Source of the DNA: Pseudomonadota bacterium
Lineage (GTDB): Bacteria; Myxococcota; JACRCW01; JAFGSX01
DNA length: 18,684 bases
NCBI GenBank assembly: GCA_043821645.1
Contig: JBDRCO010000107.1
Location: 1-18,684 of the forward strand
Direction: 5' to 3'
Below the pieces are notes generated by a model. That model did no database searches. It was not told the DNA's origin and was given only the letters and a program-made list of their open reading frames with translations. Made by a program: the position numbers and the translations under genes. Positions 1-18,001 of the stretch are shown here, one piece after another (position 1 is the first letter of the stretch; the number at the start of each line of letters is the position of its first letter).

Positions 1-1278
1 ATCGACAAGGCGCTGGCCGCTGCTCCGAGCTCGTTCAAGCTGTACGACGTGTTGGGCCGCGAAACGCACGATATGTGCGGTGACAATGTACACTTCACCC
101 CGGGCTCGGCGGCGATCAATATCCTCGACGACGAGGCCGACAAGACGCGGCCGCCCACTACCGCGGATTACGTCAACTACGTCAAGGTCGTCAGCCAGCT
201 CGACAACATCGCGTCCCAGAGCACGGCGGTTGTACCGGCCGACGTGCATCAGAACATCTCCGACAGCTACAGGTTGTACCTTAGCCTCATGTTCTGTGAG
301 AAGGCGGTCGTTACCGGGACCTTCACCATCGACGCCTTCAACGTCATGAAGGATCTTCAGCTCGCGGTACGGGGCGGCGAGGCGGAGCTAAAGGACAAGC
401 CGCTTACCGTATTCTCGTGCTGTCCCACCGCACCGCTGAAATGGAGTGACGTTACCTCGCAGAACGTGGTCGATTGCGCCCGCTATTCGATCCCCGTCGA
501 ATACATATCGATGCCCTTGTCGGGCTTCGTCGCCCCGGTAACACTGGTGGGGTCGCTCGTGCAGCACACGGCTGAGACGTTAAGCGGTATCATCATAAGC
601 CAGTTAACGAACCCGGGTACGCCCGTGCTCTACGGCGGCTCGCCGGCCATCTTCGACGTTCGTTATGAGACGACACCTATGGGTGCGGTGGAGACCATGA
701 TGATGGACTGCGCCTACAACGAGATCGGCAAGCACCTGGGCGTGCCGACCCAGGCCTACATCGGTCTGTCCGACGCCAAGCGCCTCGACGCCCAGGCGGG
801 AATGGAGACCACCATGGGCGCCACCCTGGCGGCGCTCAGCGGCATCAACAACATCTCGGGCCCGGGCATGCTCGACTTCGAGAGCGCGTTTTCCCTCGAC
901 AAGCTGGTGCTGGATAACGAGATCTGCGGCATGGCCCTGCGCCTGACTCGCGGCATCGAGCCTCGCGACGATTTTCCGGCGCGGCCACACTTCGAGGAGC
1001 TGCTGCGCGAGGGACACCTGCTCATCGCGAAGCACACCCGACGTCATCTCAAGGCCGAGCTGCACTATCCGGGTCCGCTGATCGATCGCATGAACAGCGC
1101 GCGCTACCGCGAGGAGGGCAGCCGTGATCTGCAGGCCCGGGCTCGCTCCGAGGTGGAGCGCCTGCTCGCCACCTGGCAGCCGCCAGCGCTCGATGAGGCC
1201 ACCCGGGCGGCCCTGGGCGAGCGCATGCTGGTCGAGCTCAAGCGCCACGGCATGGACCAGCTGCCGGAGCTGGCGTGA
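1..1278 (+). CDS. Trimethylamine methyltransferase (MttB) superfamily protein, non-pyrrolysine; 5'-truncated by the window edge
   Basis: Frame 1 is open from base 1 (IDKALAAAPSSFKLYD...), so the GTG at 49 is not the true start. MttB-type motifs: APVTLVGSLVQHTAETLSG, PGTPVLYG, GAVET, SDAKRLDAQAGMET, GMLDFESAFSLDKLVLDNE. No in-frame TAG. Confidence 0.9.
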   Translation: MDKALAAAPSSFKLYDVLGRETHDMCGDNVHFTPGSAAINILDDEADKTRPPTTADYVNYVKVVSQLDNIASQSTAVVPADVHQNISDSYRLYLSLMFCEKAVVTGTFTIDAFNVMKDLQLAVRGGEAELKDKPLTVFSCCPTAPLKWSDVTSQNVVDCARYSIPVEYISMPLSGFVAPVTLVGSLVQHTAETLSGIIISQLTNPGTPVLYGGSPAIFDVRYETTPMGAVETMMMDCAYNEIGKHLGVPTQAYIGLSDAKRLDAQAGMETTMGATLAALSGINNISGPGMLDFESAFSLDKLVLDNEICGMALRLTRGIEPRDDFPARPHFEELLREGHLLIAKHTRRHLKAELHYPGPLIDRMNSARYREEGSRDLQARARSEVERLLATWQPPALDEATRAALGERMLVELKRHGMDQLPELA

Positions 1279-2048
1279 GCACGGTGCAGGTCGAGATCCC
1301 GCTGGCAGACATCCTGCCGTCGCGAGCCGCGGTGCTCGCAAGCCAGGGCATCGTGGCGGAGAACCTGGCTCCGGCGCGCATCCTCGCCCTGGCAGACCAG
1401 GCCCTCGCGCTGCTCGGCGAGCAAGTCCAGGCGCGCGGGCTGTGGCGGCGTGTCGATGCCTCGACCCTGTCCCGGGTGTACGAGGGCCAGGGCCGCAACG
1501 CGCCGGGTCCCATTCTCGACGTGGCCAGGCAGGCGCTGCACCAGGTGCTGTTCGTGGTGACCCTGGGCCAGCGTGTGTGCGACGCCATCGCGGCCCTGTT
1601 CGCGGCTCACGACTTTGCCCTGGCCAGCTTTCTTGACGGTGCGGCGAGCGAGATGGCGGACCGGGCCTCGACCTGGATGGAGTGGCAGGCGGCCCAGGCC
1701 CTGGGGGCCGAGCACGATCCCGGGCACCTGGTGCTGGCCTACAGCCCTGGCTACTGCGGCTGGCATCTCAGCGGCCAGGCCGCGCTGTTCGATCAGCTCG
1801 AGCCCGCCACCATTGGCGTGCAGCTCACCGAGAGCTTCCTGATGTCGCCGGTCAAGTCGGTGTCGGGCGTGCTGCTCGATGGACCTCCGGCCATCCATCG
1901 CATCGAGGCGCGCTACGGCTTCTGCGCGAACTGCCGCAGCAGGTCCTGCGTGGTGCGACGACGATTCATCGACGATCCTGAAGCCCGCAAGGAGATCCAC
2001 GACCATGACAGAACTGACGGCAGTCGCGCAGGCGATCGAGGCCGGTGA
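1275..2048 (+). CDS. Stand-alone B12-dependent methionine synthase activation (AdoMet-binding reactivation) domain protein
   Basis: Motifs FVVTLG, YSPGYCGW and IGVQLTESFLMSPVKSVSG match the MetH C-terminal domain. GTGA overlap with the upstream stop. C-terminal CxxCxxxxC. Confidence 0.85.
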   Translation: MSTVQVEIPLADILPSRAAVLASQGIVAENLAPARILALADQALALLGEQVQARGLWRRVDASTLSRVYEGQGRNAPGPILDVARQALHQVLFVVTLGQRVCDAIAALFAAHDFALASFLDGAASEMADRASTWMEWQAAQALGAEHDPGHLVLAYSPGYCGWHLSGQAALFDQLEPATIGVQLTESFLMSPVKSVSGVLLDGPPAIHRIEARYGFCANCRSRSCVVRRRFIDDPEARKEIHDHDRTDGSRAGDRGR

Positions 2049-2640
2049 CGACGAGACTGTGGCCAGCCTGACCCGGCAGGCCCTCGATCAAGGAATGGGC
2101 GCCAAGCAGATCCTCGACCAGGGATTGCTCGCCGGGATGCAGGTGGTGGGAGAGAAGTTCCGTCGTCACGACATCTTCTTGCCCGATGTGTTGCTGGCGG
2201 CCAAGGCCCTGTACGCGGGTCTCGACATCGTCCGCCCCGCCCTCGAGGCCAACGACATCCCGGCCCGGGGTACCGTGGTCCTGGGCTCGGTGCAGGGTGA
2301 CCTGCACGACATCGGCAAGAACCTGGTGGGCATCATGTTGCGCGGCGCGGGCTTCGAGGTGGTGGACCTGGGGCACGACGTTCCTGCGGCCCGCTTCGTC
2401 GACACTGCCGTCGACAGGAGCGCGCGCATCATCGGCTGCTCGGCCCTGCTCACCACCACCATGCCGGTGATGAAGCAGGTGTCGGATCTCCTCCGGGAAC
2501 GCGGTCTCGCCGACAAGATCCACCTCATCGTGGGAGGCGCGCCGCTCAACGATGGCTTCGCCCGGGAGATCGGCGCCGCGGGCTATGGCTTCGACGCCAT
2601 GAAGGCGGTGCAGCTGTGCACCCGCCTGTGTGAGGCCTGA
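2005..2640 (+). CDS. Corrinoid (cobalamin-binding) methyl-carrier protein, MttC/MtbC-like
   Basis: ATG at 2005 follows AAGGAG (1989-1994). Cap domain GMQVVGEKF..IFLPDV; DxHxxG motif GDLHDIGKNLV; SALLTTT; VGGAP. Confidence 0.93.
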   Translation: MTELTAVAQAIEAGDDETVASLTRQALDQGMGAKQILDQGLLAGMQVVGEKFRRHDIFLPDVLLAAKALYAGLDIVRPALEANDIPARGTVVLGSVQGDLHDIGKNLVGIMLRGAGFEVVDLGHDVPAARFVDTAVDRSARIIGCSALLTTTMPVMKQVSDLLRERGLADKIHLIVGGAPLNDGFAREIGAAGYGFDAMKAVQLCTRLCEA

Positions 2641-2641
2641 G

Positions 2642-3529
2642 ATGAGCGAATTACAAGCGCGCCTGCGCGAGGGTCGTCCCGTGCTCCTCGACGGTGGCCT
2701 GGGGACACAGCTCATGGCGCGAGGCATGGCCGTGGGAGCCTGTACCGAGCTCATGGTGCTCGAGCACCCGGACTGGCTCGAGGACATCGCGCGCGCCTAC
2801 GCCGCGGCCGGTGCCGACGTGGTCACGGCCAACAGCTTTGGCGCCTCGCCGCTCAAGCTCAAGCGCTATGACCTGGATGCGCGGGCTGCCGAGCTCAACC
2901 GCATCGCGGTGGAGCTGGCGCGACGCGGCGGTGGCGACGAGGTGTGGATCGCCGGCGACGTGGGTCCCTCGGGCGAGCTGCTGCAGCCCTTTGGTGACGC
3001 TGCGCCCGGTGCCGTGCGCGCGAGCTATGTCGCGCAATGTCGCGCCCTGGCCGAGGCCGGAGTCGACCTGTTCATCGTCGAGACCATGATCGATCTCAAC
3101 GAGGCGGTGCTGGCGCTGGAGGCCGCGCGGGAAGTCGCTCCGGACCTGCCGGTGCTGGCCACCATGACCTTCGACGCCACGCCACGGGGCTTCTTCACGG
3201 TCATGGGCAATCCCGTGGACAAGGTCTGCGCCGCCCTGGCCGCCGCCGGTGCCGACGCCGTGGGCGCCAACTGCGGGCACGGGGGACGCACCCTGGTCGA
3301 GGTGGCGCGGGCCTTCGTGCAGCACAGCACTTTGCCTGTGGTCATACAGCCCAACGCCGGCCTGCCCGAGCTGGTCGATGGACAGGCCTGCTATCGCGAG
3401 ACGCCCGGGTTCCTGGTCGAGCGGGCGCGCGAGCTGCTGGACCTGGGCGTGCGCATCGTGGGCGGCTGCTGCGGCACCACCCCCGAGCACATCGCTGCCT
3501 TGCGCGCTCTCATCGACGAGCGCGGGTAG
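2642..3529 (+). CDS. Homocysteine S-methyltransferase family protein (MetH N-terminal / BHMT-like Zn domain)
   Basis: LLDGGLGTQL, GADVVTANSFG, VDLFIVET, Zn-ligand motifs GANCG and GGCCGTTPEHI, QPNAGLP. ATG at 2642 lies just after the upstream stop (alternative start 2630). Confidence 0.93.
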   Translation: MSELQARLREGRPVLLDGGLGTQLMARGMAVGACTELMVLEHPDWLEDIARAYAAAGADVVTANSFGASPLKLKRYDLDARAAELNRIAVELARRGGGDEVWIAGDVGPSGELLQPFGDAAPGAVRASYVAQCRALAEAGVDLFIVETMIDLNEAVLALEAAREVAPDLPVLATMTFDATPRGFFTVMGNPVDKVCAALAAAGADAVGANCGHGGRTLVEVARAFVQHSTLPVVIQPNAGLPELVDGQACYRETPGFLVERARELLDLGVRIVGGCCGTTPEHIAALRALIDERG

Positions 3530-3578
3530 ATTCGTTCCTCGTGCAACGTGGAACCTGGAATGCGGAACACAGGCCGCG

Positions 3579-4049
3579 CTACTGCCGCGCATCCTCGTCG
3601 GCGATGACGCGGTAGATGTCTTCGGCTGTCTGCGCCTCGAGCACGCGCTGGCGGAAACCGGCGTCCTTGAACAGGCGGGAGATCCGGGCCAGGGCCTTGA
3701 GGTGCAGGCCGGCCGAATTTTCTGGCGCCAGCAGCACGATGAAGATGCGCGATGGCTGGTTGTCGATGGCCGAGAAATCCAGCCCTTCGCGCTTGATGCC
3801 GAGGCAGGCCGAGATCCCGGGGAGTCCACCCAGCTTGCCATGCGGGATGGCCACGCCGTCGGAGATGCCGGTCGAGGCCAGGCGCTCGCGCTCGAGGAGA
3901 ACCTCGACCACCCGGCCGACGTCGCCCTCCTTGAGATGCTCGTCGCAGGTGACGAGGTGACCGGCGAGCTCGCGCAGCACGGAGGTCTTGTCGGCCGCCT
4001 CAAGCGACGCGATGACGCGGTCCGGCGTGATGAAATCGACGATTCTCAT
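3579..4049 (-). CDS. ptsN: PTS IIA(Ntr) nitrogen-regulatory protein
   Basis: ERE..STGI..GVAIPH phospho-His motif and HLKALARISRL; canonical position after rpoN-hpf. Confidence 0.9.
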   Translation of the reverse strand: MRIVDFITPDRVIASLEAADKTSVLRELAGHLVTCDEHLKEGDVGRVVEVLLERERLASTGISDGVAIPHGKLGGLPGISACLGIKREGLDFSAIDNQPSRIFIVLLAPENSAGLHLKALARISRLFKDAGFRQRVLEAQTAEDIYRVIADEDARQ

Positions 4050-4130
4050 GGCACAGGGGTCCCTCGAGAAGCGAGGACCTTGCCCCCTTCCGCAGCCCTG
4101 GTCAAGAGCCTTCGGACCTCGCGATCTCTC

Positions 4131-4715
4131 TCAGGAAGGAGCTCCTGCGGCGACCTCGGTACTGGCCTCGATGAGGCCGTAGGTGTCGTCCTTGCGGCGG
4201 AAGATGACGTTGATCTGGTTGGTGATGACGTTCTGGAACACCAGCAGATCGCTGTCCAGGAGATCCATCTGCATGACCGCTTCGTCCAGGGTCATGGGGG
4301 CGGTGAGGTACTCGTTGGTCTTCACCACCCGCGGCGGTGTGGCGTCCACCTGCACCTCGTCGTCCGAGCCCAGGCCTTCGATCACGTTGAAGCGCACCCG
4401 GAAGGGCGCGTCGGTCGCGCGCGGCTGGTGGCGCTTGAGCTTCTCGCGATAGCGCTTGAGCTGGCGCTCGATCTTCTCGATGGCGCGGTCGATCGAGGCG
4501 TACATGTCCTCGCTCTTCTCGGCGCCGCGGATCTGGACTCCGTTGGTGGTGATGCTGATGTCCGCCTTGTGCATGTACTTCTCGAGCGACAAGACGACGT
4601 GGGCATCGGTGGGTTTGTTGATGAACTTGACGATTTTCTGGACCTTGTCCGTGGCGTGGTCCTTGAGAGCCGGTGTGGCCTCCATCTGACGGAAGGTGAC
4701 GGAGACTTGCATCAT
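4131..4715 (-). CDS. hpf: Ribosome hibernation promoting factor, long form (RaiA/HPF plus C-terminal domain)
   Basis: DMYASIDRAIEKIERQLKRYREK and C-terminal PMTLDEAVMQMDLL...NVIFRRKDDTYGLI. SD AGGAGG at 4724-4719. Start is 4715 or 4712. Confidence 0.93.
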   Translation of the reverse strand: MMQVSVTFRQMEATPALKDHATDKVQKIVKFINKPTDAHVVLSLEKYMHKADISITTNGVQIRGAEKSEDMYASIDRAIEKIERQLKRYREKLKRHQPRATDAPFRVRFNVIEGLGSDDEVQVDATPPRVVKTNEYLTAPMTLDEAVMQMDLLDSDLLVFQNVITNQINVIFRRKDDTYGLIEASTEVAAGAPS

Positions 4716-4731
4716 CGACCTCCTGTGCAGA

Positions 4732-6360
4732 TCAGAAGATCTGCTTGCGCTTGGATGACGGGAGGATCCCCATCATCTCTCGATATTTCGCAACGGTGCG
4801 CCTGGCGATCTCGATCTTGCGATCGCGCAGCAGCTTGACGATCTGGGCGTCGGACAGCGGCCGCTTGGGGTCCTCGCCTCCGACGATCTCCTTGATGTGA
4901 TTCTTGACCGACTCGCTGGCGATGTCATCGCCGTCGGTACGCCGGATCGACGAGTTGAAGAAGTACTTCAGCTCGAAGATGCCCTGGGGTGTGTGCGCGT
5001 ACTTGTTGCTGGTGACGCGGCTGATGGTGGATTCGTGCATGCCGATGTCCCGGGCCACGTCCTGCAACACCATGGGACGCAGGTGTTGCGCGCCGCGCTC
5101 GAAGAAATCGCGCTGGTAGGTGAGGATGGACTCCATGACCCGGTAGATGGTGCGCTGGCGTTGGTGGATGGACCGGATGAGCCAGGTCGCCGAGCGCAAC
5201 TTGTCGCGGATGTAGGTCCGGGTCTCGCCCCGGGAGCGCGCCTCCTTGAGCTGGTTGCGATAGAAGCGGCTGATGCGCAGCTTGGGCAGACCGTCCTCGT
5301 TGAGCGTGATGGTGAACTCGTCGCCCACCTTCTGCACGAAGATGTCGGGCGTGATGTACTGGGCCTCGGGGGGGGCACCGCCGCTGGAGAACGAGCGCCC
5401 CGGCTTGGGTTCGAGCGCTTGCAGGATCTTGAGCGCCTCGCCCACGTCCTCGAGTGTGACCTTGAGCACCTTGACGATGTTCTTGAAGTTGCGGTTCTCG
5501 ATGTCCTTGAGGTGATCGCGCACCATCAGGAACACCAGGTCGTCGTCGTCGTAGCCCAGCACGTCGAGCTGCACCAGCAGGCAATCGCGCAGGTCCAGCG
5601 AGCACACGCCCACGGGATCGAAGCGCTGGATCTTGTGGCGCACGTTCTCGATCCACTCGATGGGTACCTCGAGCTCGTCGGCGACGATGGCCAGGGCGTG
5701 GGGCGGCGGCTCCGCTGCTGTTGCTTCCTGCGGGAGCTCCGCGGCGTTCGCCGGCGTGGCCTCCGCGGGAGCGCCCTCGGCGTCCGGCAGGGCCTCGGTC
5801 GCGAGCGCGTCCGGCGCACGGATCTGCTCGGGACCACTGGGTTCCCCGGCACCAAGCACCAGGTAGCCGTATTCGTTGATGTCACCGATCAGGCGGGCGC
5901 CAATCTCCTGCTCCAGCTCGTGCAGGGCGCTGAGCTTGAGCTGCCACAGCAGGTGCTCCTGCAGGGTCTCGGCCCGGGTGAGGGTCTGCTCGACTCCCGG
6001 CAATTCTTCCATGCCCGCGCGCACATTGGAGCCGGCGGGTTGGTAGGAGTAGCTGTCGGCCATGGCCTCCCAGGGGATGTCCAGGCCGCCGCCATCGCTC
6101 ACCGCTTCGACCCGGCCCTCGGACGGGGGCTCCGCCGGCGGCGCGCTGAACTGGCCCTCGGTGCCGCCCTGAACGGCTTCCACGTCGCCGGACTCTGCCC
6201 TGTCCTCGAGCACAGGATTCTCCAGCATCTGCTGGGTCACCATCTCGTTCAGCTCGAGGCGGTTGAGCTGCAACAGCTTGATGGCAAGCTGCAGCTGGGG
6301 TGTCATCACCAGTTGCTGGCTGAGCTTGAGGGACAGGTTCTGCTTGAGTTCGAGCGCCAT
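4732..6360 (-). CDS. rpoN: RNA polymerase sigma-54 factor
   Basis: Region I QQLVMTPQLQLAIKLLQL, HTH MHESTISRVT, RpoN box ARRTVAKYRE. Start placed at MALELKQ (ATG 6360). Confidence 0.98.
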   Translation of the reverse strand: MALELKQNLSLKLSQQLVMTPQLQLAIKLLQLNRLELNEMVTQQMLENPVLEDRAESGDVEAVQGGTEGQFSAPPAEPPSEGRVEAVSDGGGLDIPWEAMADSYSYQPAGSNVRAGMEELPGVEQTLTRAETLQEHLLWQLKLSALHELEQEIGARLIGDINEYGYLVLGAGEPSGPEQIRAPDALATEALPDAEGAPAEATPANAAELPQEATAAEPPPHALAIVADELEVPIEWIENVRHKIQRFDPVGVCSLDLRDCLLVQLDVLGYDDDDLVFLMVRDHLKDIENRNFKNIVKVLKVTLEDVGEALKILQALEPKPGRSFSSGGAPPEAQYITPDIFVQKVGDEFTITLNEDGLPKLRISRFYRNQLKEARSRGETRTYIRDKLRSATWLIRSIHQRQRTIYRVMESILTYQRDFFERGAQHLRPMVLQDVARDIGMHESTISRVTSNKYAHTPQGIFELKYFFNSSIRRTDGDDIASESVKNHIKEIVGGEDPKRPLSDAQIVKLLRDRKIEIARRTVAKYREMMGILPSSKRKQIF

Positions 6361-6414
6361 GGGCCTGCAAGGGCGCACAAAAAACGTGCGCTTGGGTCAT
6401 CTTCAAAGCAGGTT

Positions 6415-6420
6415 ATTATA
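6415..6420 (-). promoter_or_regulatory. Putative sigma70-type -10 box (TATAAT) for rpoN-hpf-ptsN
   Basis: ATTATA on + is a perfect TATAAT on -, in an AT-rich intergenic patch about 55 nt upstream of the rpoN ATG. The -35 position (ATGCCT) is weak. Confidence 0.55.
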
Positions 6421-6450
6421 GGCGTGCAGCATGAAAAAGGCATCTGCCAA

Positions 6451-7449
6451 ATGAGACTTGATCCGGCTGATCTCGGGACCCCACTTGCCGACGCAGGCAG
6501 CAGCAGCCTGCGCCACGCGCTCGTCTGCACTCTGCTCGTCGCCAGCCTCACCGCTTGCCCGGACAAGGCCCGCCCCGGGACGCCCGAAAGACCGTTGCGT
6601 CTGATGCTGTTTCCGGCCAGCAGCGGACCCCAGTTGCAGGAGGCGCGGCAGACCCTGGCCCGGTTCCTGAGCGAGCGCACGGGCCTGCAGGTGGTGACCC
6701 GTGAGCCGGTGGATTCCTTCGATGCGGTGCAGCAGCTGGGCTCGGGCCAGGTCGACGCGGCCCTGCTCAATGATCTGAGCTTCTTGCTGGCCGAGGACAC
6801 CTATCGCGTGCAGGCACGGCTGCGGATGCTGCGCCAGGGCGGCTCCGAGCACCGGGCACAGATCATCGTGCATCGCGACGCAGGCTTTGCCAGCCCGACG
6901 GCCCTGCATGGCAAGCGCGTGGCCTATGTCGATCCCTACTCCATGACCGGTTTCGTGCTGGTGGCTCACCTGCTGCGGCAACACGGCGTCGAGCCCGGGA
7001 GCACCAGCTTCGTGGGCTCCCACCTCGAGGCCGTGCGCCAGGTGCTGTCGGGCGATGCCGATGCGGCGGCCACCTACGTCGACGAGTCGCTGGGTCCGGG
7101 TCTGCCAGGCGATCTGCGGGCCGGGCTCCTGCCGCGCTTCCCGGACGCCGCCGATCGTCTGATCTCTCTGGCCACCACCGTGGCCGTGCCCAATGAGCCG
7201 GTGGCTTTCACCCGGGGTCTGGATGAGGACCTGGTGCAGAGGCTGTGTGCGGCCCTCAAGGCCGCGGCGAGCGATCCCGCAGCTCTGCAGGCCCTGCAGG
7301 CCCTGGGGAACGTCGGTGGTTTCGTCGATGCCCGAGGCGAGGACTACGCCCAGCTGCGACTCATGCTCGGCAGCCTGGGCAAGAATGTCGACGACGGCGT
7401 GCCAGGTGGCTGGAAGCTGAAGCTGCGCACGGCTGATAGCGTTCGCTGA
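6451..7449 (+). CDS. PhnD-like phosphate/phosphite/phosphonate ABC substrate-binding protein, probable lipoprotein
   Basis: LSERTGLQV, GQVDAALL, LHGKRVAYVDPYSMTG, GSHLEAVRQVLSGDADAAA, VPNEP. Hydrophobic stretch ending in lipobox LTAC. Start uncertain. Confidence 0.8.
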   Translation: MRLDPADLGTPLADAGSSSLRHALVCTLLVASLTACPDKARPGTPERPLRLMLFPASSGPQLQEARQTLARFLSERTGLQVVTREPVDSFDAVQQLGSGQVDAALLNDLSFLLAEDTYRVQARLRMLRQGGSEHRAQIIVHRDAGFASPTALHGKRVAYVDPYSMTGFVLVAHLLRQHGVEPGSTSFVGSHLEAVRQVLSGDADAAATYVDESLGPGLPGDLRAGLLPRFPDAADRLISLATTVAVPNEPVAFTRGLDEDLVQRLCAALKAAASDPAALQALQALGNVGGFVDARGEDYAQLRLMLGSLGKNVDDGVPGGWKLKLRTADSVR

Positions 7450-7465
7450 GGATCGGCTCCTCTCA

Positions 7466-7506
7466 CCCACCACACCTGCGGTGGGCGACGCAGACCTGCC
7501 GGGTCT
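7466..7506. terminator. Hairpins between convergent genes, possible terminator
   Basis: CCCACC(7466-71)/GGTGGG(7480-85) and AGACC(7492-96)/GGTCT(7502-06). No clear U-tract. Confidence 0.3.
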
Positions 7507-8562
7507 CTACCAGCTTGCTGGAGCGTAGCTGGTCTCGTCACCCCAGGGCGGCTCGCGGGCGACGATCTCGAAGGGGGCGCGGCCCTGGCACGCTAGCCGT
7601 CGATGCTGGCCGGTGATTTCTCGAACCTCCAGCTCCAGCGAGCCCAGGAGCTGGTTGCAGTTGTAGCGCACGCTGCCGTCGACGTCAGGGTAACGCACGC
7701 GCAGCATGCCCTCGCGCGGTGCGGTCCAGCGACCCTCGAGCACCAGCTCGGGGCTGCGTGCAGCAAAGGTCCAATCGCCGAGGGCATAGCGCGCGTGCGT
7801 GGGCTCGCCCAGCAGACCCAATCCGGCCCCCTTGAGGTGGCGCAGGCGGTTGAAGGCGTGGTGCTTGCCGTCGAGGACCAGCTCGCAGCTCATCAGGGTG
7901 TTGCTGCCGCGCTGCGTGGCCACCGCCTCGAAGGCACAGTCCGCTGCGTCGTCGAAGCGCGGGCAGGCGCCCCAGGCCCAGCCGTCCTGCATGGCGCGGC
8001 CAAAGGTGTGACCCTGGGTCAACATCGCCCCGTCGAGAGAGATCGCATCCGAGTCCAGGTGCAGGCTGCCCTGCACCGCGGCCTGGCTATTGGGCGAGGT
8101 GTGGTGGGAGCGCGAGATCGCGCGCGCAAGCCAGGGGTTGGCGACGGAACGAAAGGTGGCACTCGCCGGATCGAAGCGCAGGTCCCAGGCCACCGTGGCG
8201 TCGCTCTGGGTCACGCGGCCGCGTGCCAGGCCATTGTTGAAGAACGCGTGCTCGCCCAGGTGCAGCCCGAAGCGCGCCTGCTCGAAGCGCACCTGATCCA
8301 GGGGCAGGGCCTGGGTCAGTCTGAGGTCACGGCCTCCGGGCCGCCCATCCCGCACCAGGGCCCACAGCCGCGCATCCGAGGAGCCGTCGTGCCGTTGCAG
8401 CAGCGAGTGACGGAACCACAGCGCGAGGGCCTGGGTCGGATGCAGCACGATGGCGTACCACTGCTCGTACTGCGGGGCACCCCGGGGACTGGGCCAGGTC
8501 CGGACGGGCTGATTGTCGCGGTCATTCGGGGGTGGGGCAGCGACAGACGCGTAGGCTGGCAT
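7507..8562 (-). CDS. Hypothetical protein, tocopherol cyclase / CrtC / AttH-like beta-barrel
   Basis: YEQWY near the N-terminus, WDLRF, QGHTFG...WAWG resemble the E-x-W-Y and (H/K)-x-W-G...W-x-W patterns of this fold. Start ATG 8562 (track gives 8598). Confidence 0.55.
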   Translation of the reverse strand: MPAYASVAAPPPNDRDNQPVRTWPSPRGAPQYEQWYAIVLHPTQALALWFRHSLLQRHDGSSDARLWALVRDGRPGGRDLRLTQALPLDQVRFEQARFGLHLGEHAFFNNGLARGRVTQSDATVAWDLRFDPASATFRSVANPWLARAISRSHHTSPNSQAAVQGSLHLDSDAISLDGAMLTQGHTFGRAMQDGWAWGACPRFDDAADCAFEAVATQRGSNTLMSCELVLDGKHHAFNRLRHLKGAGLGLLGEPTHARYALGDWTFAARSPELVLEGRWTAPREGMLRVRYPDVDGSVRYNCNQLLGSLELEVREITGQHRRLACQGRAPFEIVAREPPWGDETSYAPASW

Positions 8563-8625
8563 GCGACACCGCCTTTCGGAGGACGGCCGGCCCGCCACCG
8601 ATTAGCGGAAGCGCGCCCCGTATGT

Positions 8626-8634
8626 TGTTATGAT
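8626..8634 (+). promoter_or_regulatory. Putative extended -10 promoter (TGn-TATGAT) for dacB operon
   Basis: TGTTATGAT in an AT-rich patch about 30 nt upstream of ATG 8663. Confidence 0.45.
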
Positions 8635-8662
8635 GGGTGCTGGACTGCGAGACAAGGATGAA

Positions 8663-10261
8663 ATGCGTCAGGCCCTCGCCATCATCGCCCTGCTTCTCGC
8701 GCTGATCCTCGACGGAGAACAGTCTGTCGGCGCCAGCGACGGCAGCGTCGACGTTGCCGAACACCCGCCTGACACCGCGTTGGCCCCGGCATCCCTGGAC
8801 CCTGGAAGCACGGACACGGCGGAAGCCCTGCTCGAGATCTCGCCGCTGCTCGACGGCAACGTCCGCGCCATGATCACTCACGCCCTCACACATCCGGCCC
8901 TGCGCGGTGCTCGCGTCGGTCTCTACGCGGCCTCTCTCGACAGTGGGGCCATGCTGCTGCGCAAGAATCCGCACCTCCTGCTCAACCCTGCCTCCAATGC
9001 CAAGCTCGTCACCTCGGCCGCGGCCCTGGCCCTGCTGGGGCCCGAGCATCGCTTCGCCACCTTCTATGCCAGCGACGGGGAGATCGTGAACGGCACGCTG
9101 CAGGGGAACCTGTACGTGCGGGGTCGGGGCGATCCCACCATCAGCACCGAGCGCCTGCTGGCGGTGCTTCACGAGCTCAAGCTGCTGGGTATCACGAAGA
9201 TCGAGGGCCGCGTTCTCGTCGACGACAGCTTCTTCGATGGCGTGCGCGAGGCCAAGGGCTGGGAGCAGGAGGACAGCGATCGCGCCTACGCTGCGCCAGT
9301 GGGTGCCCTGTCCCTCAACTACAACACGGTCACCGTGATCGCCCGCCCCGGTCCCTTCGTGGGGAGCCCCGCGATCCTGACCGTGGATCCGCCCAGCGAC
9401 TACATCCAGCTCGACGCCAAGGTGACCACCAGCGACTGGAATGCGCGACTGTACATGCGCAGCTTCGAGCGCGGTGGCCGCAACGTGGTGCGCCTGCGCG
9501 GCCACGTCAGCAGCGACGGCGGACCGCAACGCATCTACCGGCGGGTCAGCGATCCCGCCCTGCATTTCGCGAGCGCGCTGGTGGGCATGTTGAACGATGC
9601 CGGTATCTCGGTGCAGCGGCACCCCGGCCGCGCCTACACGCCGGACCGGGCCCGGGTGCTGGTGACCGATCGCTCGCCGCGCCTGGCCACGGTCGTGGCA
9701 GAACTCAACAAGTGGTCCAATAACTTCATCGCCGAGATGTTGATCAAGACCCTGGGGGCCGAGATCGCCGGGACCCCCGGGAGCTTCGAGCGCGGCCTGG
9801 CCGTGGCGCGGCAGTTCCTCGAGACCGAGGTCGGCTGGCGTCATGGCAGCTACGTGTTCAATAACGGCAGTGGACTCAACGACGTCAATCGCTTCTCCAC
9901 GGAACAGATCGCGCAGCTGCTGCGTTACATGCACGGCCACGCCGAGGCCGGGCATGAGTTCGTGTCCAGCCTGGGGGTCGCGGGTCGCCAGGGAACCATC
10001 GCCCTGCGCCTTCGCGACACCGCCGCGGACCGCCGGCTGCGGGCCAAGACCGGGACCCTGAGCCACGTCAGTGCGCTCAGCGGCTACGTCGTGACCGCCA
10101 GCGGTGAGCCCCTGGTCTTCTCCATCCTGGTCAACGGGTATGATGGCTCGACGCGGCCGATCTGGGAGGTCCAGGACATGATCGGCGAGGCCCTGGCCAT
10201 GTACGCCGGCGACCTGCGCGATCGGATGGATGCCACCGCGCTGCACAGGAGCGAGCCGTGA
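8663..10261 (+). CDS. dacB: D-Ala-D-Ala carboxypeptidase/endopeptidase (PBP4, peptidase S13)
   Basis: SxxK (PASNAK), GRGDPT, SxN (SNNFIAE), NGSGL, KTG (AKTGTL). Signal peptide after ATG 8663, preceded by AAGGA. Confidence 0.93.
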   Translation: MRQALAIIALLLALILDGEQSVGASDGSVDVAEHPPDTALAPASLDPGSTDTAEALLEISPLLDGNVRAMITHALTHPALRGARVGLYAASLDSGAMLLRKNPHLLLNPASNAKLVTSAAALALLGPEHRFATFYASDGEIVNGTLQGNLYVRGRGDPTISTERLLAVLHELKLLGITKIEGRVLVDDSFFDGVREAKGWEQEDSDRAYAAPVGALSLNYNTVTVIARPGPFVGSPAILTVDPPSDYIQLDAKVTTSDWNARLYMRSFERGGRNVVRLRGHVSSDGGPQRIYRRVSDPALHFASALVGMLNDAGISVQRHPGRAYTPDRARVLVTDRSPRLATVVAELNKWSNNFIAEMLIKTLGAEIAGTPGSFERGLAVARQFLETEVGWRHGSYVFNNGSGLNDVNRFSTEQIAQLLRYMHGHAEAGHEFVSSLGVAGRQGTIALRLRDTAADRRLRAKTGTLSHVSALSGYVVTASGEPLVFSILVNGYDGSTRPIWEVQDMIGEALAMYAGDLRDRMDATALHRSEP

Positions 10262-11967
10262 AGGTCTTCCTGGGTGCGGCCTTGATCCTTCTGTCCACTC
10301 CCGTGCTGGCCGCGGAACTGTTTCCCCTGCCCTCGGCGCTCGAGCCCAACGTGCGCTTCTGGCGCCGGGTGTACGCGGAGTGGCCGACCAATCGCTACGC
10401 CATTCACGACGACCAGCAGCTGGATATCGTGTACCGGGTGATCGCCGCCACCGATGGTCGCGAGGCCAAGGTCAAGAACGCCAAGGCCGAGATCGAGGAC
10501 GCCCTGGGCCGGCTGGATGCACGCCGCCCGAGCAGCGAAAGCGGGCTCACAGGTGCCGAGCTCGAGGCCTTCCGGGCCCTCTCCGGCTCGAGCGATCCAG
10601 CGCGTTTTGCCCGGGCTCGCGGCCACGTGCGGCACCAGAAAGGGCAGCGCGATCGCTTTGCCGAGGCCCTGCGCACCAGTGGACGCTACCGCCCGCAGAT
10701 CGAGAAGATCCTGGTCGACCACGGCCTGCCCCGGGAGCTGCTGGCCGTGATCTACGTCGAATCGATGTTCAACACCCATGCCCGCAGCTTCTCGGGCGCA
10801 CTGGGCCTGTGGCAGTTCATGCCCTACACCGGCCGCGAATATCTCAACATCAACAAGGTTGTCGACGAGCGCCGCGATCCCATCATCGCCAGCTACGCTG
10901 CGGCCAGCTACCTGCGCAGTGCCTACAAGCGTCTCGGGGCATGGCCTCTGGCCATCACCTCGTACAACTACGGCATGAACGGCATGGCCCGGGCTGTCAA
11001 GGCGGTGGGCACCACCGAGATCGCCACGGTGCTGTCGAGCTACCGCAGCGGGCGGCTGGGCTTTGCCGCCAAGAACTACTACACCGAGTTCCTGGCTGCA
11101 CTCGACGTCATGCAGAATCCAGGGCGCTACTTCCCGGAGGTGACGCCTGCCTCACCCTGGCGCTATGACGTGGTCCGGCTCCCGGGCGCAACCACGGTCC
11201 CGGCACTGGACAAGGCCGGTTCGGTGTCCGCCAAGGACCTGACGACGCTGAATCCTGCTCTCAACCGCGAGGCCCTGCAGGGGCGGGTGCGCCTCCCGGC
11301 GGGGATGTCCCTGCGCATTCCTCGAGGCCGGACGGAGTCCTTCGTGGCGTCCCTGGGGTCGGTTCGGGATCTGCGTCGCGGAGATGAGGAGAGAGGCCGT
11401 CGCTACACGGTTCGAGGAGGCGACTCCATCACCAGCATTGCACGCCGTCACGGTGTGACCCAGGGGCAGCTGCTCGCCGCCAACCACCTGGCTCGCGACG
11501 CCACCCTGTACAAGGGCATGAACCTGATCGTGCCGCCCAAGGCGGCGGGGTACACCCTGTACCCGGAGGCGCGCGAGATGCCTGTGCCCGAGCTTCCCGC
11601 CGGGGTCGCTGTGGCCGCCCGCAGCGTCGAGCCTGAGCCCGAGCTGGAGCCTGAGCCTGAGCGGGAGCCGCCAAAGCGCGTGGCCACGGCCATCCCTCGC
11701 GCCGAGGTGCGCACCAGGACCGTGCGCGAACCCCCACCGCCGCGGCGCCATGCCCGCCGGGTGCGGCTGCCTGGGACCCGGGCGATCGTGCTGGCAGGAC
11801 CGGTCACGGCTGACGAGGGAGGGGCTGCCGCTGCCCTCGAGGCCGAGATCGCCGTCGACGTGCTGGCTGGCACCATGGACCTGCCTGCGGTGGATGTCGT
11901 GGCGGGCGTGCCCGCCGTCCTCGACGAACCGATGCCTGAGCCGTCGCAGACCCCCGACGCGGCCTGA
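10258..11967 (+). CDS. MltD-like lytic transglycosylase (SLT domain plus LysM) with low-complexity C-terminal tail
   Basis: Signal peptide; VESMFN (catalytic Glu), GLWQFMP, DERRDP, SYNYG; LysM YTVRGGDSITSIARRHGV. GTGA overlap with dacB. Confidence 0.9.
   Translation: MKVFLGAALILLSTPVLAAELFPLPSALEPNVRFWRRVYAEWPTNRYAIHDDQQLDIVYRVIAATDGREAKVKNAKAEIEDALGRLDARRPSSESGLTGAELEAFRALSGSSDPARFARARGHVRHQKGQRDRFAEALRTSGRYRPQIEKILVDHGLPRELLAVIYVESMFNTHARSFSGALGLWQFMPYTGREYLNINKVVDERRDPIIASYAAASYLRSAYKRLGAWPLAITSYNYGMNGMARAVKAVGTTEIATVLSSYRSGRLGFAAKNYYTEFLAALDVMQNPGRYFPEVTPASPWRYDVVRLPGATTVPALDKAGSVSAKDLTTLNPALNREALQGRVRLPAGMSLRIPRGRTESFVASLGSVRDLRRGDEERGRRYTVRGGDSITSIARRHGVTQGQLLAANHLARDATLYKGMNLIVPPKAAGYTLYPEAREMPVPELPAGVAVAARSVEPEPELEPEPEREPPKRVATAIPRAEVRTRTVREPPPPRRHARRVRLPGTRAIVLAGPVTADEGGAAAALEAEIAVDVLAGTMDLPAVDVVAGVPAVLDEPMPEPSQTPDAA
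11629..11670 (+). repeat. Imperfect in-frame 6-nt tandem repeat (GAGCCN-like x7) encoding an (EP)n linker
   Basis: gagcct gagccc gagctg gagcct gagcct gagcgg gagccg. Confidence 0.7.
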
Positions 11968-12028
11968 GTCCGCCCTCTGTCGTGTCCCGGTTGACCGGGC
12001 GGCGCACCCGTTGTCTGCTGGGTGCATC

Positions 12029-13468
12029 ATGCGCGGCGTGTTGCCACAGCCATCGGTGGTCTACGAGGTCCTGATCGATCGTTTCAGCCGATCGCAGGAT
12101 GGCGTGACGGCAGTCCAGGCCTGGGGCGAGGAGGATGACCGGCACCTTGTTCACGGCGGCGACCTGCGCGGCGTGACCCGGCGCCTGGATCACCTTGTCG
12201 AGCTCGGCGTGGACACCTTGTTGCTGTCACCGGTGTGGCCGTCGACCAGCGCGCTCGGCGACGAGATCGAGGACTTCTTCTCGGTCTCGCCGGCCCTGGG
12301 TGGCGAGGAGGCCTTCGACGAGTTGCTGCAGGCTGCCCAGCAGCGGGGAATGTGGGTCCTGCTCACCGGGCTGTTCGATCGCGTTGGCCACAAGCACGAC
12401 TGGTTCGTCGAGGCCACGACCCAGGAGCTCGACGACGGACGCATCGATCCCAGCCAGCGCCGGCGCTCGTTCTTCTCCTTCGAGCAGGCGCCCTTTGGCC
12501 ATGCCGCGTACCGGGGAGATCAGACGCAGCCCGAACTCAACCTGCAGGACTATCACCTGCGTCACAAGCTCCTGCATGGCGACCGCTCCGTGCTGCGGAC
12601 CTGGATAGACCGTGGCATCAACGGCTGGCGCATCGACCACGCCGAGTCCCTGGGCTACGAGGTGCTGGGCGAGATCCTGCGGGCCTCGCGCAATGCCAAC
12701 CCCGACTGCCTGGTCATCGGCGACGCCCGGGCCTTCGCGGCGCGCGAGGTGCGCGACGGCCTGGTCGACGGGGTGGTCAACCACTACCTGCGCGAGGCCG
12801 TGGTGGCCTTTCTGCGCGGCCGGGTGCCGGCCCAGGAACTGGGGCGGGTGCTCGAGCAGCAGGTGCTGCGCTACGGTTCGCGCGGTCTGTCCCGCTGCTT
12901 CAACGTGCTGTCCAGTGCCGGGGATCCTCGCCTGCTGTCCTTGCTCGACGGCGATGCCCGGCGCATGCACCTGGCGGTGCAGCTTCAGTACGCGCTCCCT
13001 GGAGCGGCGGTGGTCTTCTACGGCGATGAGGTCGGTCTGGTCGGCGCGGAGCTGGCGTCGTGCCGCCGGCCCATGGAATGGGATCGCGGCCGCTGGAACC
13101 CGGACCTGCTGCAGGCGTACAAGCAGATGGGAGCGCTGCGCCGTGCCCAGCGCGCCCTGGTCAGCGGCGACGTGACCAACCTGACGCCGAGTGGCGAGCC
13201 CGACGTCTTTGCCCTGGCCCGCTCCTGTGGCAATCCGCGAGACACCGTGGTGGCCGCCTTCAATCGCAGCGACCGGGCGCGGGAGGTGACTCTGTTCGTG
13301 GCCGTGGGAGGCATGGTCGATGGTCTGCCCATGCGCGATGCCCTGAGCGAGACGCAGGCCGTCTTCCGCAACGGGGTGCTCGACCTGGTGATACCGGCGC
13401 ATGGCGCCGTGATCCTGGCCCCGGCCCTCGATGCCTTGGCGGGATATCGGTTTCTCAAGGATCGCTGA
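12029..13468 (+). CDS. GH13 alpha-amylase family protein (neopullulanase/maltodextrin glucosidase-like) with degenerate catalytic motifs
   Basis: VYEVLIDRF, GGDLRGVTRRLDHLVELGV, PELN, GWRID, PGAAVVFYGDEVG, CRRPMEW. Start placed at ATG 12029 because the track start overlaps the MltD-like gene. Confidence 0.88.
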   Translation: MRGVLPQPSVVYEVLIDRFSRSQDGVTAVQAWGEEDDRHLVHGGDLRGVTRRLDHLVELGVDTLLLSPVWPSTSALGDEIEDFFSVSPALGGEEAFDELLQAAQQRGMWVLLTGLFDRVGHKHDWFVEATTQELDDGRIDPSQRRRSFFSFEQAPFGHAAYRGDQTQPELNLQDYHLRHKLLHGDRSVLRTWIDRGINGWRIDHAESLGYEVLGEILRASRNANPDCLVIGDARAFAAREVRDGLVDGVVNHYLREAVVAFLRGRVPAQELGRVLEQQVLRYGSRGLSRCFNVLSSAGDPRLLSLLDGDARRMHLAVQLQYALPGAAVVFYGDEVGLVGAELASCRRPMEWDRGRWNPDLLQAYKQMGALRRAQRALVSGDVTNLTPSGEPDVFALARSCGNPRDTVVAAFNRSDRAREVTLFVAVGGMVDGLPMRDALSETQAVFRNGVLDLVIPAHGAVILAPALDALAGYRFLKDR

Positions 13469-13914
13469 TGGTGCTGCTGCAGACCGCGCTGGCCCTGTGG
13501 CTGGGGCTCCTGCTGGCCTCGGGGCTTCACGAGCTGGGCCACGCCGTGGTGGCCCGCGGCGCGGGTGCGCGGCGGATCCAGCTTCGCGTCGGGTACGGCC
13601 CTGGACTTTTTCACCTGTGCCTCGCAGGCGGCAGGCTTCAGCTCGGGCTGCTCTTCCCCGTCGGGGGCTGCTGCAGCTTCGAAGGGGACCTGCCCTGGCG
13701 CGCCGCGCTGGCCGAGCGCGCCGCAGGGTCGCTGGTCAACCTCGGCATCGCTGCGCTGCTGGCGCTGGCCTGGCCGATGATCGCTGGCGTCGTGGCCTGG
13801 AGCGTCCTGGTGGCCCAGCTCGCGGTTGGCCTGGGTCAGCTGGTGCCGCTGGGCGAGCTCGATGGCGCGCAGCTCAAGCGGCTGCTGCACAGCCCGCAGC
13901 GCACGTCGCCCTGA
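13468..13914 (+). CDS. Small M50 / site-2 protease family membrane metallopeptidase (148 aa)
   Basis: HELGH in a hydrophobic helix, VGYGP, AAGSLVN (AGPxxN-like), QLVPLGELDG (NxxPxxxLDG-like). TGATG coupling with the GH13 gene. Confidence 0.75.
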   Translation: MVLLQTALALWLGLLLASGLHELGHAVVARGAGARRIQLRVGYGPGLFHLCLAGGRLQLGLLFPVGGCCSFEGDLPWRAALAERAAGSLVNLGIAALLALAWPMIAGVVAWSVLVAQLAVGLGQLVPLGELDGAQLKRLLHSPQRTSP

Positions 13915-13945
13915 ACTCTGGTGGGCGGCATCGAGGCTGCGGCCC

Positions 13946-14887
13946 TCATCCGAGGACAAGCTCTCGCAGCAGATCGTAGACCCGGCCCACGGTCTCCAGG
14001 GACTGGCGCTGCAGCGCCTCGGGCACCTTTGCCAGGTGCTCGGTCACGCCACAGACGTCGGCACCCAGCACGCGACGCGCGCGTCCCAGGCGCCGCAAGA
14101 GCTGCTCCAGCTCGTCGAACTCGAGCTCGCCCTGGTTGTCGGAGGGTGCCGTGATGCCGCCGTCGCCGGTGCGGCGCCAGTCCGTGACCAGCCCCCGGCG
14201 CAGCACGTCGAGATCGACGCTCAGATAGATCGCGTCGCCACGCAGGCTGTCTGGCTCGAAGGCGGCGAGGTCGCGCCAGCGCACCACCAGGGCGCGGTCG
14301 ATACGGCGCGGGTTGGCGGGCAGGCGTTGCACCCGGGCGCTGCGCACCGAGGCATTGCGGCGGGCCGCCACGCCATGGTGCCGCGACGCGCGCAGCACGA
14401 CCTCCCCGACGTCGTCGGGATGTGCCAGGTACTGGCGCAGCTTGGCGAAGACCTCGCACCGATAATAGGTGATCTCATTGCCCAGGATCAGGCCTGGCAG
14501 ATCGTGCTGCTCGGGGCTGGTGTTCAAACCCAGCAGCACACCCTCATGGACCTCGGGGATCTCCAGGATCGCACCCACGAAAGACGCGCAGTCGAGCTTC
14601 CAGCGAAAGCGCGTGTCCTTGTCGGGGTGGGCGTCGACGTGAACGTAGCTCACGCTGTTCCGGCGGCACAGCCCCTCGACCACGGCGTAGGTCTCGTGGT
14701 GAAAGTTTCCCGAGCCGTTGAGCACCACGAAGGGCCCCTCGGGCACCGGGCGCAGCCGCGCCTTCAGGGTCTCGGGCCTGCGGCCGGCGGCTGGCCAGGT
14801 GACGTCGATGGTGGTGCCCCGGGTGCGGCCAAGATACTCGGCCACGCGCAGCGCTTCAGGGTAGTCGATGACAACGGTCGAGAGCAC
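13946..14887 (-). CDS. Arginase/ureohydrolase-fold protein of unknown substrate
   Basis: GSGNFHH, HVDAHPD, YLSVDLDVL, QGEL, GADVCG. GTG start overlaps the upstream TAG. Confidence 0.8.
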   Translation of the reverse strand: MLSTVVIDYPEALRVAEYLGRTRGTTIDVTWPAAGRRPETLKARLRPVPEGPFVVLNGSGNFHHETYAVVEGLCRRNSVSYVHVDAHPDKDTRFRWKLDCASFVGAILEIPEVHEGVLLGLNTSPEQHDLPGLILGNEITYYRCEVFAKLRQYLAHPDDVGEVVLRASRHHGVAARRNASVRSARVQRLPANPRRIDRALVVRWRDLAAFEPDSLRGDAIYLSVDLDVLRRGLVTDWRRTGDGGITAPSDNQGELEFDELEQLLRRLGRARRVLGADVCGVTEHLAKVPEALQRQSLETVGRVYDLLRELVLG

Positions 14888-15993: not shown

Positions 15994-16015
15994 AGGCACG
16001 GTTCGTGTCCTGCCG

Positions 16016-17218: not shown

Positions 17219-17278
17219 GAATGGATCCTCTCGCACCGCGTCAAACGTGCGCCTCCGACGGAAGCGGAGACTGTTTCG

Positions 17279-17308
17279 ATATTAAGAATGGGGCGCCAGT
17301 AGTGTCAA
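17279..17308 (-). promoter_or_regulatory. Putative sigma70 promoter TTGACA-N18-TAATAT for the TPR-FHA-arginase operon
   Basis: TGTCAA (17303-17308) is a perfect TTGACA on -; ATATTA (17279-17284) is TAATAT on -; spacer 18 nt. Confidence 0.65.
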
Positions 17309-17380
17309 TGAAAGGGTACCCGACGCCCCGGGGCCGTGCTATCGAAGGAGCGTCCAGCGCAACGAGCAGGAGGAGATGCC

Positions 17381-18001
17381 ATGCTTCGTCACGCCTACCA
17401 TGTGTTGGGGATCGCCCTGCTGGCGTGGTCCACCACGGCCACGGCCCAGACCGCCGCGGAACCTGCAGCCACCAAGACAGCCCCCGCCAAGGTCGCACCC
17501 AAGACCGCAGGCAATCCCGTGGTCGTCATCGAGACCAGCAAGGGCCGCATCGTGGCCGAGCTGTTCCCGGACAAGGCGCCGCGCAGCGTCGAGAACTTCA
17601 TCGCGTACGCCGACGCCAAGTTCTACGACGGTCTGGTGTTTCACCGCGTCATCGATGGTTTCATGATCCAGGGCGGTGGCTACTCGGCAGATCTGCAGCC
17701 GCGCCAGGTGCGAGCGCCCATCCCCCTCGAGGCGGGGCGCGGCCTGTCCAACAAGCGTGGGACCCTGGCCCTGGCTCGCACCGCCGCCCCGGACAGCGCG
17801 ACCAGCCAGTTCTTCATCAACCTCGTCGATAACGACAGGCTGGATAGCTATGGCGGTGGCTACGCCGTGTTCGGCCGGGTCACCGAGGGCATGCAGGTCG
17901 TCGACGCCATTGCCAAGGTCAAGACAGCACCGCGGGCTGGACAGCAGGATGCGCCGGTGGAACCCGTCATCCTCAAGAGTGTTCGAGTGACCAAGCGCTA
18001 G
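17381..18001 (+). CDS. ppiA: Cyclophilin-type peptidyl-prolyl cis-trans isomerase, exported
   Basis: FHRVIDGFMIQGGG, RGTLALART, SATSQFFIN, GYAVFGRV. AGGAGGAG before ATG 17381; signal peptide ending ATA-Q. Confidence 0.92.
   Translation: MLRHAYHVLGIALLAWSTTATAQTAAEPAATKTAPAKVAPKTAGNPVVVIETSKGRIVAELFPDKAPRSVENFIAYADAKFYDGLVFHRVIDGFMIQGGGYSADLQPRQVRAPIPLEAGRGLSNKRGTLALARTAAPDSATSQFFINLVDNDRLDSYGGGYAVFGRVTEGMQVVDAIAKVKTAPRAGQQDAPVEPVILKSVRVTKR

Follow-up and report, generated by a model that had tools for sequence, protein, structure and literature searches.

The first 3,529 nucleotides of an 18,684-nucleotide stretch of DNA from a Myxococcota genome (contig C107, positions 1-18684; hereafter the window) are occupied by four plus-strand open reading frames (ORFs). 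According to the ORF list and a Pfam domain search, they encode an MttB-like methyltransferase, a MetH activation protein, a corrinoid protein and a homocysteine methyltransferase. The source is a draft genome (G000) of 7.07 Mb in 140 contigs, 94.7% complete and 3.95% contaminated. An earlier description made from the letters of this DNA, referred to here as the original prediction, had listed the same four tightly coupled genes; this gene set was confirmed, with every gene in its predicted place and every domain correctly named. It had also noted that no pterin-binding domain was in view, and no match to the pterin domain PF00809 was found in any of the four operon proteins. We consider it probable that the four genes are a self-contained module for corrinoid methyl transfer, making methionine without methyl-tetrahydrofolate (methyl-THF).

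The first gene (1..1278, plus strand) encodes a non-pyrrolysine member of the MttB superfamily, presumed to be a methyl-donor:corrinoid methyltransferase, and is truncated at its 5' end. It scored 222.8 bits with PF06253 (MTTB; cut-off 25, E = 6.6e-66), the match spanning positions 86-489 of the 500-position profile. Most of its full-length relatives are 484-490 amino acids long, so about 60 N-terminal residues are missing from the window protein. The second gene (1275..2048, plus strand) starts with a GTG that overlaps the TGA stop of the first as GTGA (1275-1278), and encodes a 257-amino-acid, stand-alone, TM0269-like MetH activation protein with a Cys motif at its C terminus, predicted to bind S-adenosylmethionine (AdoMet) for reactivation. 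The ATG of the third gene (2005..2640, plus strand), which encodes a corrinoid (B12-binding) carrier protein, lies 44 nucleotides inside the activation gene, with AAGGAG located 10 nucleotides 5' of it. The fourth gene (2630..3529, plus strand) encodes a Zn-type homocysteine S-methyltransferase domain protein, the putative methyl acceptor module. It begins either at GTG 2630, overlapping the corrinoid gene, or at ATG 2642, 1 nucleotide past the corrinoid stop, and the latter is likely the true start. To judge from this layout, the four genes are translationally coupled.

Components of the module

The activation protein matched PF02965 (Met_synt_B12) with 31.6 bits (cut-off 25), over residues 156-204 only. 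A database search returned 342 relatives, and those with names were called either hypothetical or 'vitamin B12 dependent-methionine synthase activation domain-containing'. When a family profile from an alignment of 26 sequences was compared with structures in the PDB, 1J6R (TM0269) came first (E = 8.3e-11), followed by MetH reactivation domains. An AlphaFold model of the protein, with a mean predicted local distance difference test (pLDDT) score of 90.3, had the same top match in Foldseek (1J6R, E = 6.6e-11, template modelling score 0.77 on the target), and the next fold matches were the reactivation domains of the Thermus, E. coli and human MetH proteins (probability 1.00). Profile and model both identify the protein as a MetH activation domain in short, stand-alone form. 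TM0269 reportedly reactivates the MetH of Thermotoga maritima, in work attributed to Huang et al. in 2007.

The top match in both profile and fold, TM0269 is likewise a short stand-alone activation domain. The window family differs in adding a C-terminal CxxCxxxxC and the Cys of SPGYCGW, and in that its partner would be a separate corrinoid protein rather than a MetH polypeptide. YSPGYCGW and the three C-terminal cysteines were invariant in the 26-sequence alignment, and SPGYCGW was at least 95% conserved in 69 sequences; its PGY-containing segment is presumably the AdoMet-binding site. The four invariant cysteines are thus C161, inside SPGYCGW, and C217, C220 and C225 of the C-terminal motif. 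The alignment to 1J6R ends at family-profile position 199, before CxxCxxxxC, and 1J6R has SPGY without the following Cys. The pLDDT of the model falls to 72-81 at the C-terminal motif. The four cysteines may form a metal site.

Activation proteins were also found in other settings. A locus from the same phylum (L016, G038:C213, 2336-8902) encodes a DUF362/ferredoxin protein, a TM0269-like activation protein, an MttB protein, a pterin-binding protein, a second MttB protein and a corrinoid protein, a layout which indicates that classical MttB-to-THF systems, too, use the stand-alone activation protein. In G044, a complete Gemmatimonadota chromosome that lacks MetH and MetE, an ORF whose MetH activation domain is of the canonical type (E = 3.5e-60) stands directly before a YitJ-like fusion of homocysteine methyltransferase and methylenetetrahydrofolate reductase (HcyMT-MTHFR; G044:C1:1062169-1064330), and no B12 domain was reported at that locus.

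The corrinoid protein has a cap and a Rossmann domain (PF02607, E = 1.8e-20, and PF02310, E = 2.6e-25, both over cut-off). The window sequence contains GDLHDIGKN, in which we take DxHxxG to be the cobalt-ligand motif, and the segments GD.HD.GKNLV, SALLTTT and GGAP were at least 95% conserved in 63 sequences. Against NCBIfam models it scored 201 bits with MtgC, 196.6 with pyl_corrinoid and 132 with metH. The homocysteine module matched PF02574 (228.1 bits, E = 2.6e-67) and scored 259 bits with PRK08645 (YitJ type), 212 with PRK07534 (Bmt type) and 160 with metH. Its motifs G.NCG.G (C214) and GGCCGT (C279 and C280) were at least 95% conserved in 64 sequences, and the cysteines of NCG and GGCCGT are assumed here to be the three Zn ligands.

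The original prediction had called this operon a split methionine synthase. The corrinoid protein is nearer to MtgC, and the homocysteine module nearer to YitJ and Bmt, than either is to metH, which makes the label imprecise. By these comparisons the module combines parts of methylamine type with parts of methionine-synthase type and is not just a split MetH. MetH in split form was rejected as an assignment, with the methyl-THF module (PF00809) absent from the operon proteins and no MetH-type pterin match in 79 of the 80 related loci described below.

In the reading we prefer, the MttB-like enzyme, a TIM barrel, would take a methyl off a small methylated compound and load it on the corrinoid protein in its Co(I) form, and the homocysteine S-methyltransferase would pass it from methyl-Co(III) to homocysteine, giving methionine without methyl-THF. 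Corrinoid that had slipped to Co(II) would be re-methylated by the TM0269-like protein with AdoMet and an electron donor encoded elsewhere. Transfer in this direction, homocysteine as the acceptor and AdoMet-type repair are what we infer, as is all that is said below of the donor. Homocysteine is assigned by family membership alone, and the acceptor might instead be another thiol, or the flow might be reversed, with an S-methyl compound as donor and an amine methylated by the MttB-like enzyme; the sections of PMC12478193 on Ruegeria describe MtgD as proposed to be bidirectional. We regard either possibility as highly improbable, as the models with which the homocysteine module scores highest are those of homocysteine enzymes (PRK08645, PRK07534 and metH) and its Cys motifs are conserved in 64 sequences. 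Moving a methyl off a thioether and onto Co(I) is also chemically unfavourable, which counts against reversed flow.

Distribution and gene order in other genomes

Related loci were collected by scanning species-representative genomes with the activation-protein alignment, and the best 80 of at least 588 activation-protein relatives were searched (tblastn) for the four window proteins, for the pterin segment of the G000 MetH and for an MTHFR domain. Co-occurrence of the four families, which the original prediction had raised as a check, was borne out: the MttB, activation, corrinoid and homocysteine genes were colinear on one strand in 63 of the 80 loci, with median gaps of 24, 48 and 14 nucleotides. 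The same order in so many related loci indicates that the arrangement is not due to chance. Nine of the others were cut by a contig end, and one (L072) had the activation gene first. The remaining seven deviated: two had the activation and homocysteine genes only (L048 and L071), one lacked the MttB gene (L053), two lacked the homocysteine gene (L066 and L098) and two had the activation gene alone (L082 and L101).

Judged by their record titles, the loci belong to Gemmatimonadota, Planctomycetota, Ignavibacteria, Zixibacteria, WOR-3, Aminicenantes, Cloacimonadota, Acidobacteriota, Elusimicrobia, Bacteroidota and other groups. The compact four-gene arrangement is therefore a common form over many phyla and is not special to the lineage of the window. 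The cluster has also been in print since 2022. Williams et al. (Environ Microbiol, PMC9324843), in the part of that paper dealing with it, described the same four components in one gene cluster in metagenome-assembled genomes of Ca. Electryoneota, found it in diverse bacteria and hypothesized a novel corrinoid-dependent methionine synthesis with an unknown methyl donor; a typical MetH was present in the same genomes. The window differs in its lineage, Myxococcota rather than Electryoneota, and is another lineage of a known cluster. Novelty of the compact arrangement and of the lineage, as suggested in the original prediction, is thus not upheld.

Closer to the window, a genome of the same family (G001) contained the same operon, with an MttB protein 69% identical to that of the window and, upstream of it, a divergent gene resembling a 5'-nucleotidase. 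G001 was the only one of 40 sampled relatives of G000 to match the activation protein strongly (E = 7.7e-35). Five further relatives matched it with E-values from 5.8e-11 to 6.2e-16, and in the two of these that were annotated (G038 and G009) the activation protein was in other gene contexts. A complete Fidelibacterota chromosome (G043) appeared to contain two copies of the run of activation, corrinoid and homocysteine genes (G043:C1:1099653-1101592 and 2905172-2907019).

On the other side of the window operon, genes for a ptsN-like EIIA protein (PF00359), hpf (PF02482 and PF16321) and rpoN (sigma-54) are encoded on the minus strand at 3579-6378. This cluster converges on the 3' end of the operon across a gap of 50 nucleotides and is unrelated to the operon finding. 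RpoN points to an uncultured lineage of Deltaproteobacteria or Myxococcota-like kind, being 73% identical to the protein of a metagenome-assembled genome so classified. A simple scan of the window found no promoter or terminator in 3300-4300, and two RNA data sets matched only in short stretches at conserved sites.

The MttB-like enzyme and its methyl donor

The only NCBIfam model that the window MttB matched was TIGR02369, the model for MttB proper, and its score of 313 bits was under the cut-off of 525. It was nearly equidistant from two solved structures, Methanosarcina barkeri MttB (7XCL, 174.8 bits) and Desulfitobacterium hafniense MtgB (9YCE, 174 bits). Within its own clade conservation was strong: 172 of 425 window positions were at least 95% conserved in an alignment of 70 members, and identity to the window protein, by tblastn, was 61-77% across the phyla of the related loci.

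The M. barkeri enzyme is the best-scoring solved relative, the best NCBIfam model is also that of MttB, and its Met249 is retained in the window protein. The two residues Pyl334 (pyrrolysine) and Tyr364, whose roles in that enzyme are treated in part of PMC9842639, are not retained. Pyl334 aligned to Leu256 of the window fragment, a position occupied by Leu in 66 of the 70 clade members and by Met in four, and Tyr364 aligned to Ser286, which is Ser in 69 of 70. MttB proper was rejected as an assignment for these two replacements and the TIGR02369 score.

D. hafniense MtgB is likewise a non-pyrrolysine enzyme of the MttB superfamily that loads a cognate corrinoid protein (MtgC), but there the acceptor is THF, reached through the pterin-binding protein MtgA, as set out in the relevant sections of PMC12478193 and PMC13080624. 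Glycine betaine is bound in MtgB by Y97, R312, H348 and F356, according to the portion of PMC13080624 on this site. In a HMMER alignment to 9YCE, these residues corresponded to S36, Q251, S286 and E294 of the window protein, a mapping that assumes an inferred offset of +2 between the chain index of 9YCE and the published numbering. The replacements are uniform in the clade (S in 69, Q in 70, S in 69 and E in 68 of 70 members), and D292 is invariant. MtgB was rejected as an assignment in turn, all four betaine-binding residues being replaced. With the betaine residues of MtgB and the pyrrolysine and Tyr364 of MttB all replaced, the enzyme is neither MttB proper nor MtgB.

The same replacements leave the N-methyl or quaternary-amine donor named in the original prediction unsupported. 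Glycine betaine is probably not the donor, and an onium-type or protonated N-methyl compound would be the most likely one. The uniform pocket suggests one fixed substrate for the clade, and from its acidic residues we would guess at a cationic compound without a carboxylate.

Two further observations concern the MttB genes. The Rfam model PYLIS_3, the pyrrolysine insertion element of mttB, had matches barely over the gathering threshold within the MttB coding sequences of four related loci (L041, 6462-6561; L046, 6489-6588; L094, 6477-6576; L057, 6450-6549), and none in the window. The matching genes were without an in-frame stop, and coding homology probably accounts for the matches. A second gene of this MttB clade, truncated at its 3' end and 67% identical to the window protein at the amino acid level, was found in G000 on the 2.6-kb contig C125 (locus L104). 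The contig carries genes at 1-1182 on the minus strand and 1350-2600 on the plus strand, with an antiporter-like membrane gene (Mrp/Nuo, PF00361) upstream of and divergent from the MttB gene. No second activation, corrinoid or homocysteine gene was found in the G000 assembly. L104 could belong to another operon that was not assembled, or the contig could be a contaminant.

Folate dependence and the place of the module in methionine synthesis

The original prediction held that a gene for a methyl-THF:corrinoid methyltransferase directly upstream would speak against its proposal. None was seen in G001 or in 79 of the 80 related loci, and the upstream region of the window operon itself lies off the contig. 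A MetH-type pterin match within 7 kb was found at one locus only, L098 (Gemmatimonadota). There, at 3769-8343, a divergent PF00809 gene and an IclR regulator precede the MttB, activation and corrinoid genes, and no homocysteine module was found in the 2.5 kb after the corrinoid gene. This combination of a pterin gene with no homocysteine module indicates that either acceptor can be fed by the one MttB clade, and so puts the enzyme on the donor side; by its gene content, L098 appears to be a THF-acceptor wiring of the same donor enzyme.

A survey of 50 genomes, those of loci L022-L072 and L094 (L041 and L044 were left out and searched separately), found a MetH pterin segment (E ≤ 1e-8) in 26, a match to PF01717 (the MetE family) in nine and neither in 16. 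Eleven of these 16 had the full colinear cluster, three were cut by a contig end and two were partial. Absences are firmer in six complete chromosomes, which were also compared. Full MetH proteins over cut-off and no PF01717 match were found in G041 (Phycisphaerales), in which MTHFR (PF02219) was also found, and in G042 (Gemmatimonadota). G043 had a MetH-like ORF covering profile positions 263-1182, no PF01717 match and an MTHFR. No MetH pterin module was found in the other three: G044 had no PF01717 match, and its MTHFR is part of the YitJ-like fusion noted above; G045 (Zixibacteria) had a 326-amino-acid PF01717 protein and no MTHFR; and G095 (WOR-3) had neither a PF01717 nor a PF02219 match. 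S-adenosylhomocysteine hydrolase and Cys/Met pyridoxal phosphate enzymes were found in G044, G045 and G095, which indicates that these organisms make homocysteine. In G095 the module would be the only recognisable route of homocysteine methylation, and methyl-THF is an unlikely donor there since no MTHFR was found.

These genomes bear on whether the MttB-like protein might be a non-homologous stand-in for the pterin module, taking its methyl group from methyl-THF or another endogenous one-carbon carrier, so that the operon would be a housekeeping methionine synthase in four pieces. Such a role would fit the very strong conservation of the clade over phyla, the polar pocket positions and the lack of a conserved transporter or regulator adjoining the module, and in complete G044 there is an MTHFR domain and no MetH pterin module or MetE to consume methyl-THF. 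We consider it quite improbable nonetheless. G095 and G045, both complete, carry the module without a PF02219 MTHFR; the characterised members of the MttB superfamily treated in the sections of PMC12478193 and PMC13080624 consulted here all use methylated amines; and in G000, G041 and G042 a full MetH is kept in addition to the module, an argument against simple redundancy.

The G000 genome contains, beside the operon, a full MetH of about 1140 amino acids (contig C43) and a YitJ-like HcyMT-MTHFR (contig C138), and had no match to PF01717. No stand-alone pterin module was found in it at E ≤ 1e-4, the only one found being inside the C43 MetH. Because a canonical MetH is also present, the operon would be an accessory route in this organism, drawing on a scavenged methyl donor. 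In some other lineages the module may be the sole methionine synthase.

A closely comparable arrangement is that of Ruegeria pomeroyi (MtgBCDE) and the split MetH of Phaeobacter inhibens. In the parts of Mausz et al. 2025 (PMC12478193) that report the Ruegeria genetics, one corrinoid protein serves both an MttB-family betaine module and a stand-alone homocysteine module. The system shares with the window operon an MttB-family donor enzyme, a stand-alone corrinoid protein acting as common cobalamin carrier and a homocysteine module of the Bmt/PRK07534 type, and it links use of a methylated amine to methionine synthesis. It differs, according to the same account, in needing the pterin protein MtgD for both functions, in its scattered genes and in reactivation by RamA and DUF1638; the window operon is compact, has no pterin gene and encodes a TM0269-like activation protein (RamA and DUF1638 were not among the searches of G000). 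A Ruegeria-type MtgBCDE was rejected as an assignment, there being no pterin gene in the operon and a TM0269-like reactivation protein in it.

By analogy, the operon could still be one arm of a shared-corrinoid network whose main work is catabolic demethylation, with the methyl group passed to THF by a pterin methyltransferase encoded elsewhere and the homocysteine module using the same corrinoid protein for methyl-THF-dependent methionine synthesis. In R. pomeroyi, methionine synthesis and betaine use each require MtgC as well as MtgD, and mtgE is at another site, as those parts of PMC12478193 relate; L098 couples the same MttB clade to a pterin gene, and a MetH-type pterin module was present somewhere in 26 of the 50 surveyed genomes. 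Several observations nevertheless make a network of this kind unlikely. The pterin module of G000, a genome that is 94.7% complete, was found only inside full-length MetH. No pterin gene was found within 7 kb at 79 of the 80 loci, while at least 63 have the homocysteine module as a fixed part of the operon. In G095 and G045, both complete, there was in each case a single PF00809-type hit or none of the MetH type, and no MTHFR. Finally, reactivation is TM0269-like here, in contrast to the RamA and DUF1638 reported for Ruegeria.

Flow from the donor through the MttB-like enzyme and the corrinoid protein to homocysteine is the most economical reading, and a self-contained module that makes methionine without methyl-THF is plausible and favoured by the comparative data. 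Several points weigh against it. The window begins at base 1 of contig C107, so the DNA upstream of the operon in its own genome was not read; a 2822-base contig of run X1 appears to extend beyond that start. The pocket of the MttB-like enzyme is polar and acidic (S36, Q251, S286, D292 and E294) and is without the Tyr97 and Phe356 with which MtgB binds a quaternary amine, and so sits uneasily with a classic quaternary amine. Context offers no clue to the donor or to regulation linked to methionine: in a clustering of flanking ORFs made with a crude ORF caller, no flanking family or transporter recurred in more than nine of the 80 loci (the most frequent family is probably an antisense mis-call), and no cobalamin or SAM riboswitch reached the Rfam gathering score in the window, in the paralogue contig L104 or in 17 related loci. 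Of the features that the original prediction had proposed looking for, a recurrent linked transporter and a riboswitch were thus not seen. The absences in the genome survey are weak, since 49 of the 50 genomes are drafts of unstated completeness, and full MetH and HcyMT-MTHFR make the operon dispensable in principle in G000. No biochemical or genetic test of the four-gene module was found in full-text searches of the literature, the supplements of PMC9324843 and PMC12478193 not being covered. The direct, folate-independent flow of methyl groups to homocysteine foreseen in the original prediction is thus partly supported: it is inferred, and plausible, as the function of the operon, but with a full MetH in G000 it is not the sole route to methionine there.

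Tentatively, the clade may represent a further class of methionine synthase, serving as the sole route in lineages without MetH, MetE and MTHFR such as G095. Its donor might then lie beyond the known range of the MttB superfamily; a sulfonium compound would be one example, and another a protonated methylamine whose activation would fall to the invariant Asp/Glu pair instead of pyrrolysine. The four-Cys site of the activation protein might serve the repair electron as an integral metal centre.

The window adds another lineage to those with the module and indicates that it can reside in the same genome as a full MetH. If methionine is made as proposed here, many uncultured bacteria would close the methionine/SAM cycle without methyl-folate, by means of an environmental methyl compound and vitamin B12, which would change the genome-based reading of methionine prototrophy, of B12 demand and of the turnover of methylated compounds.

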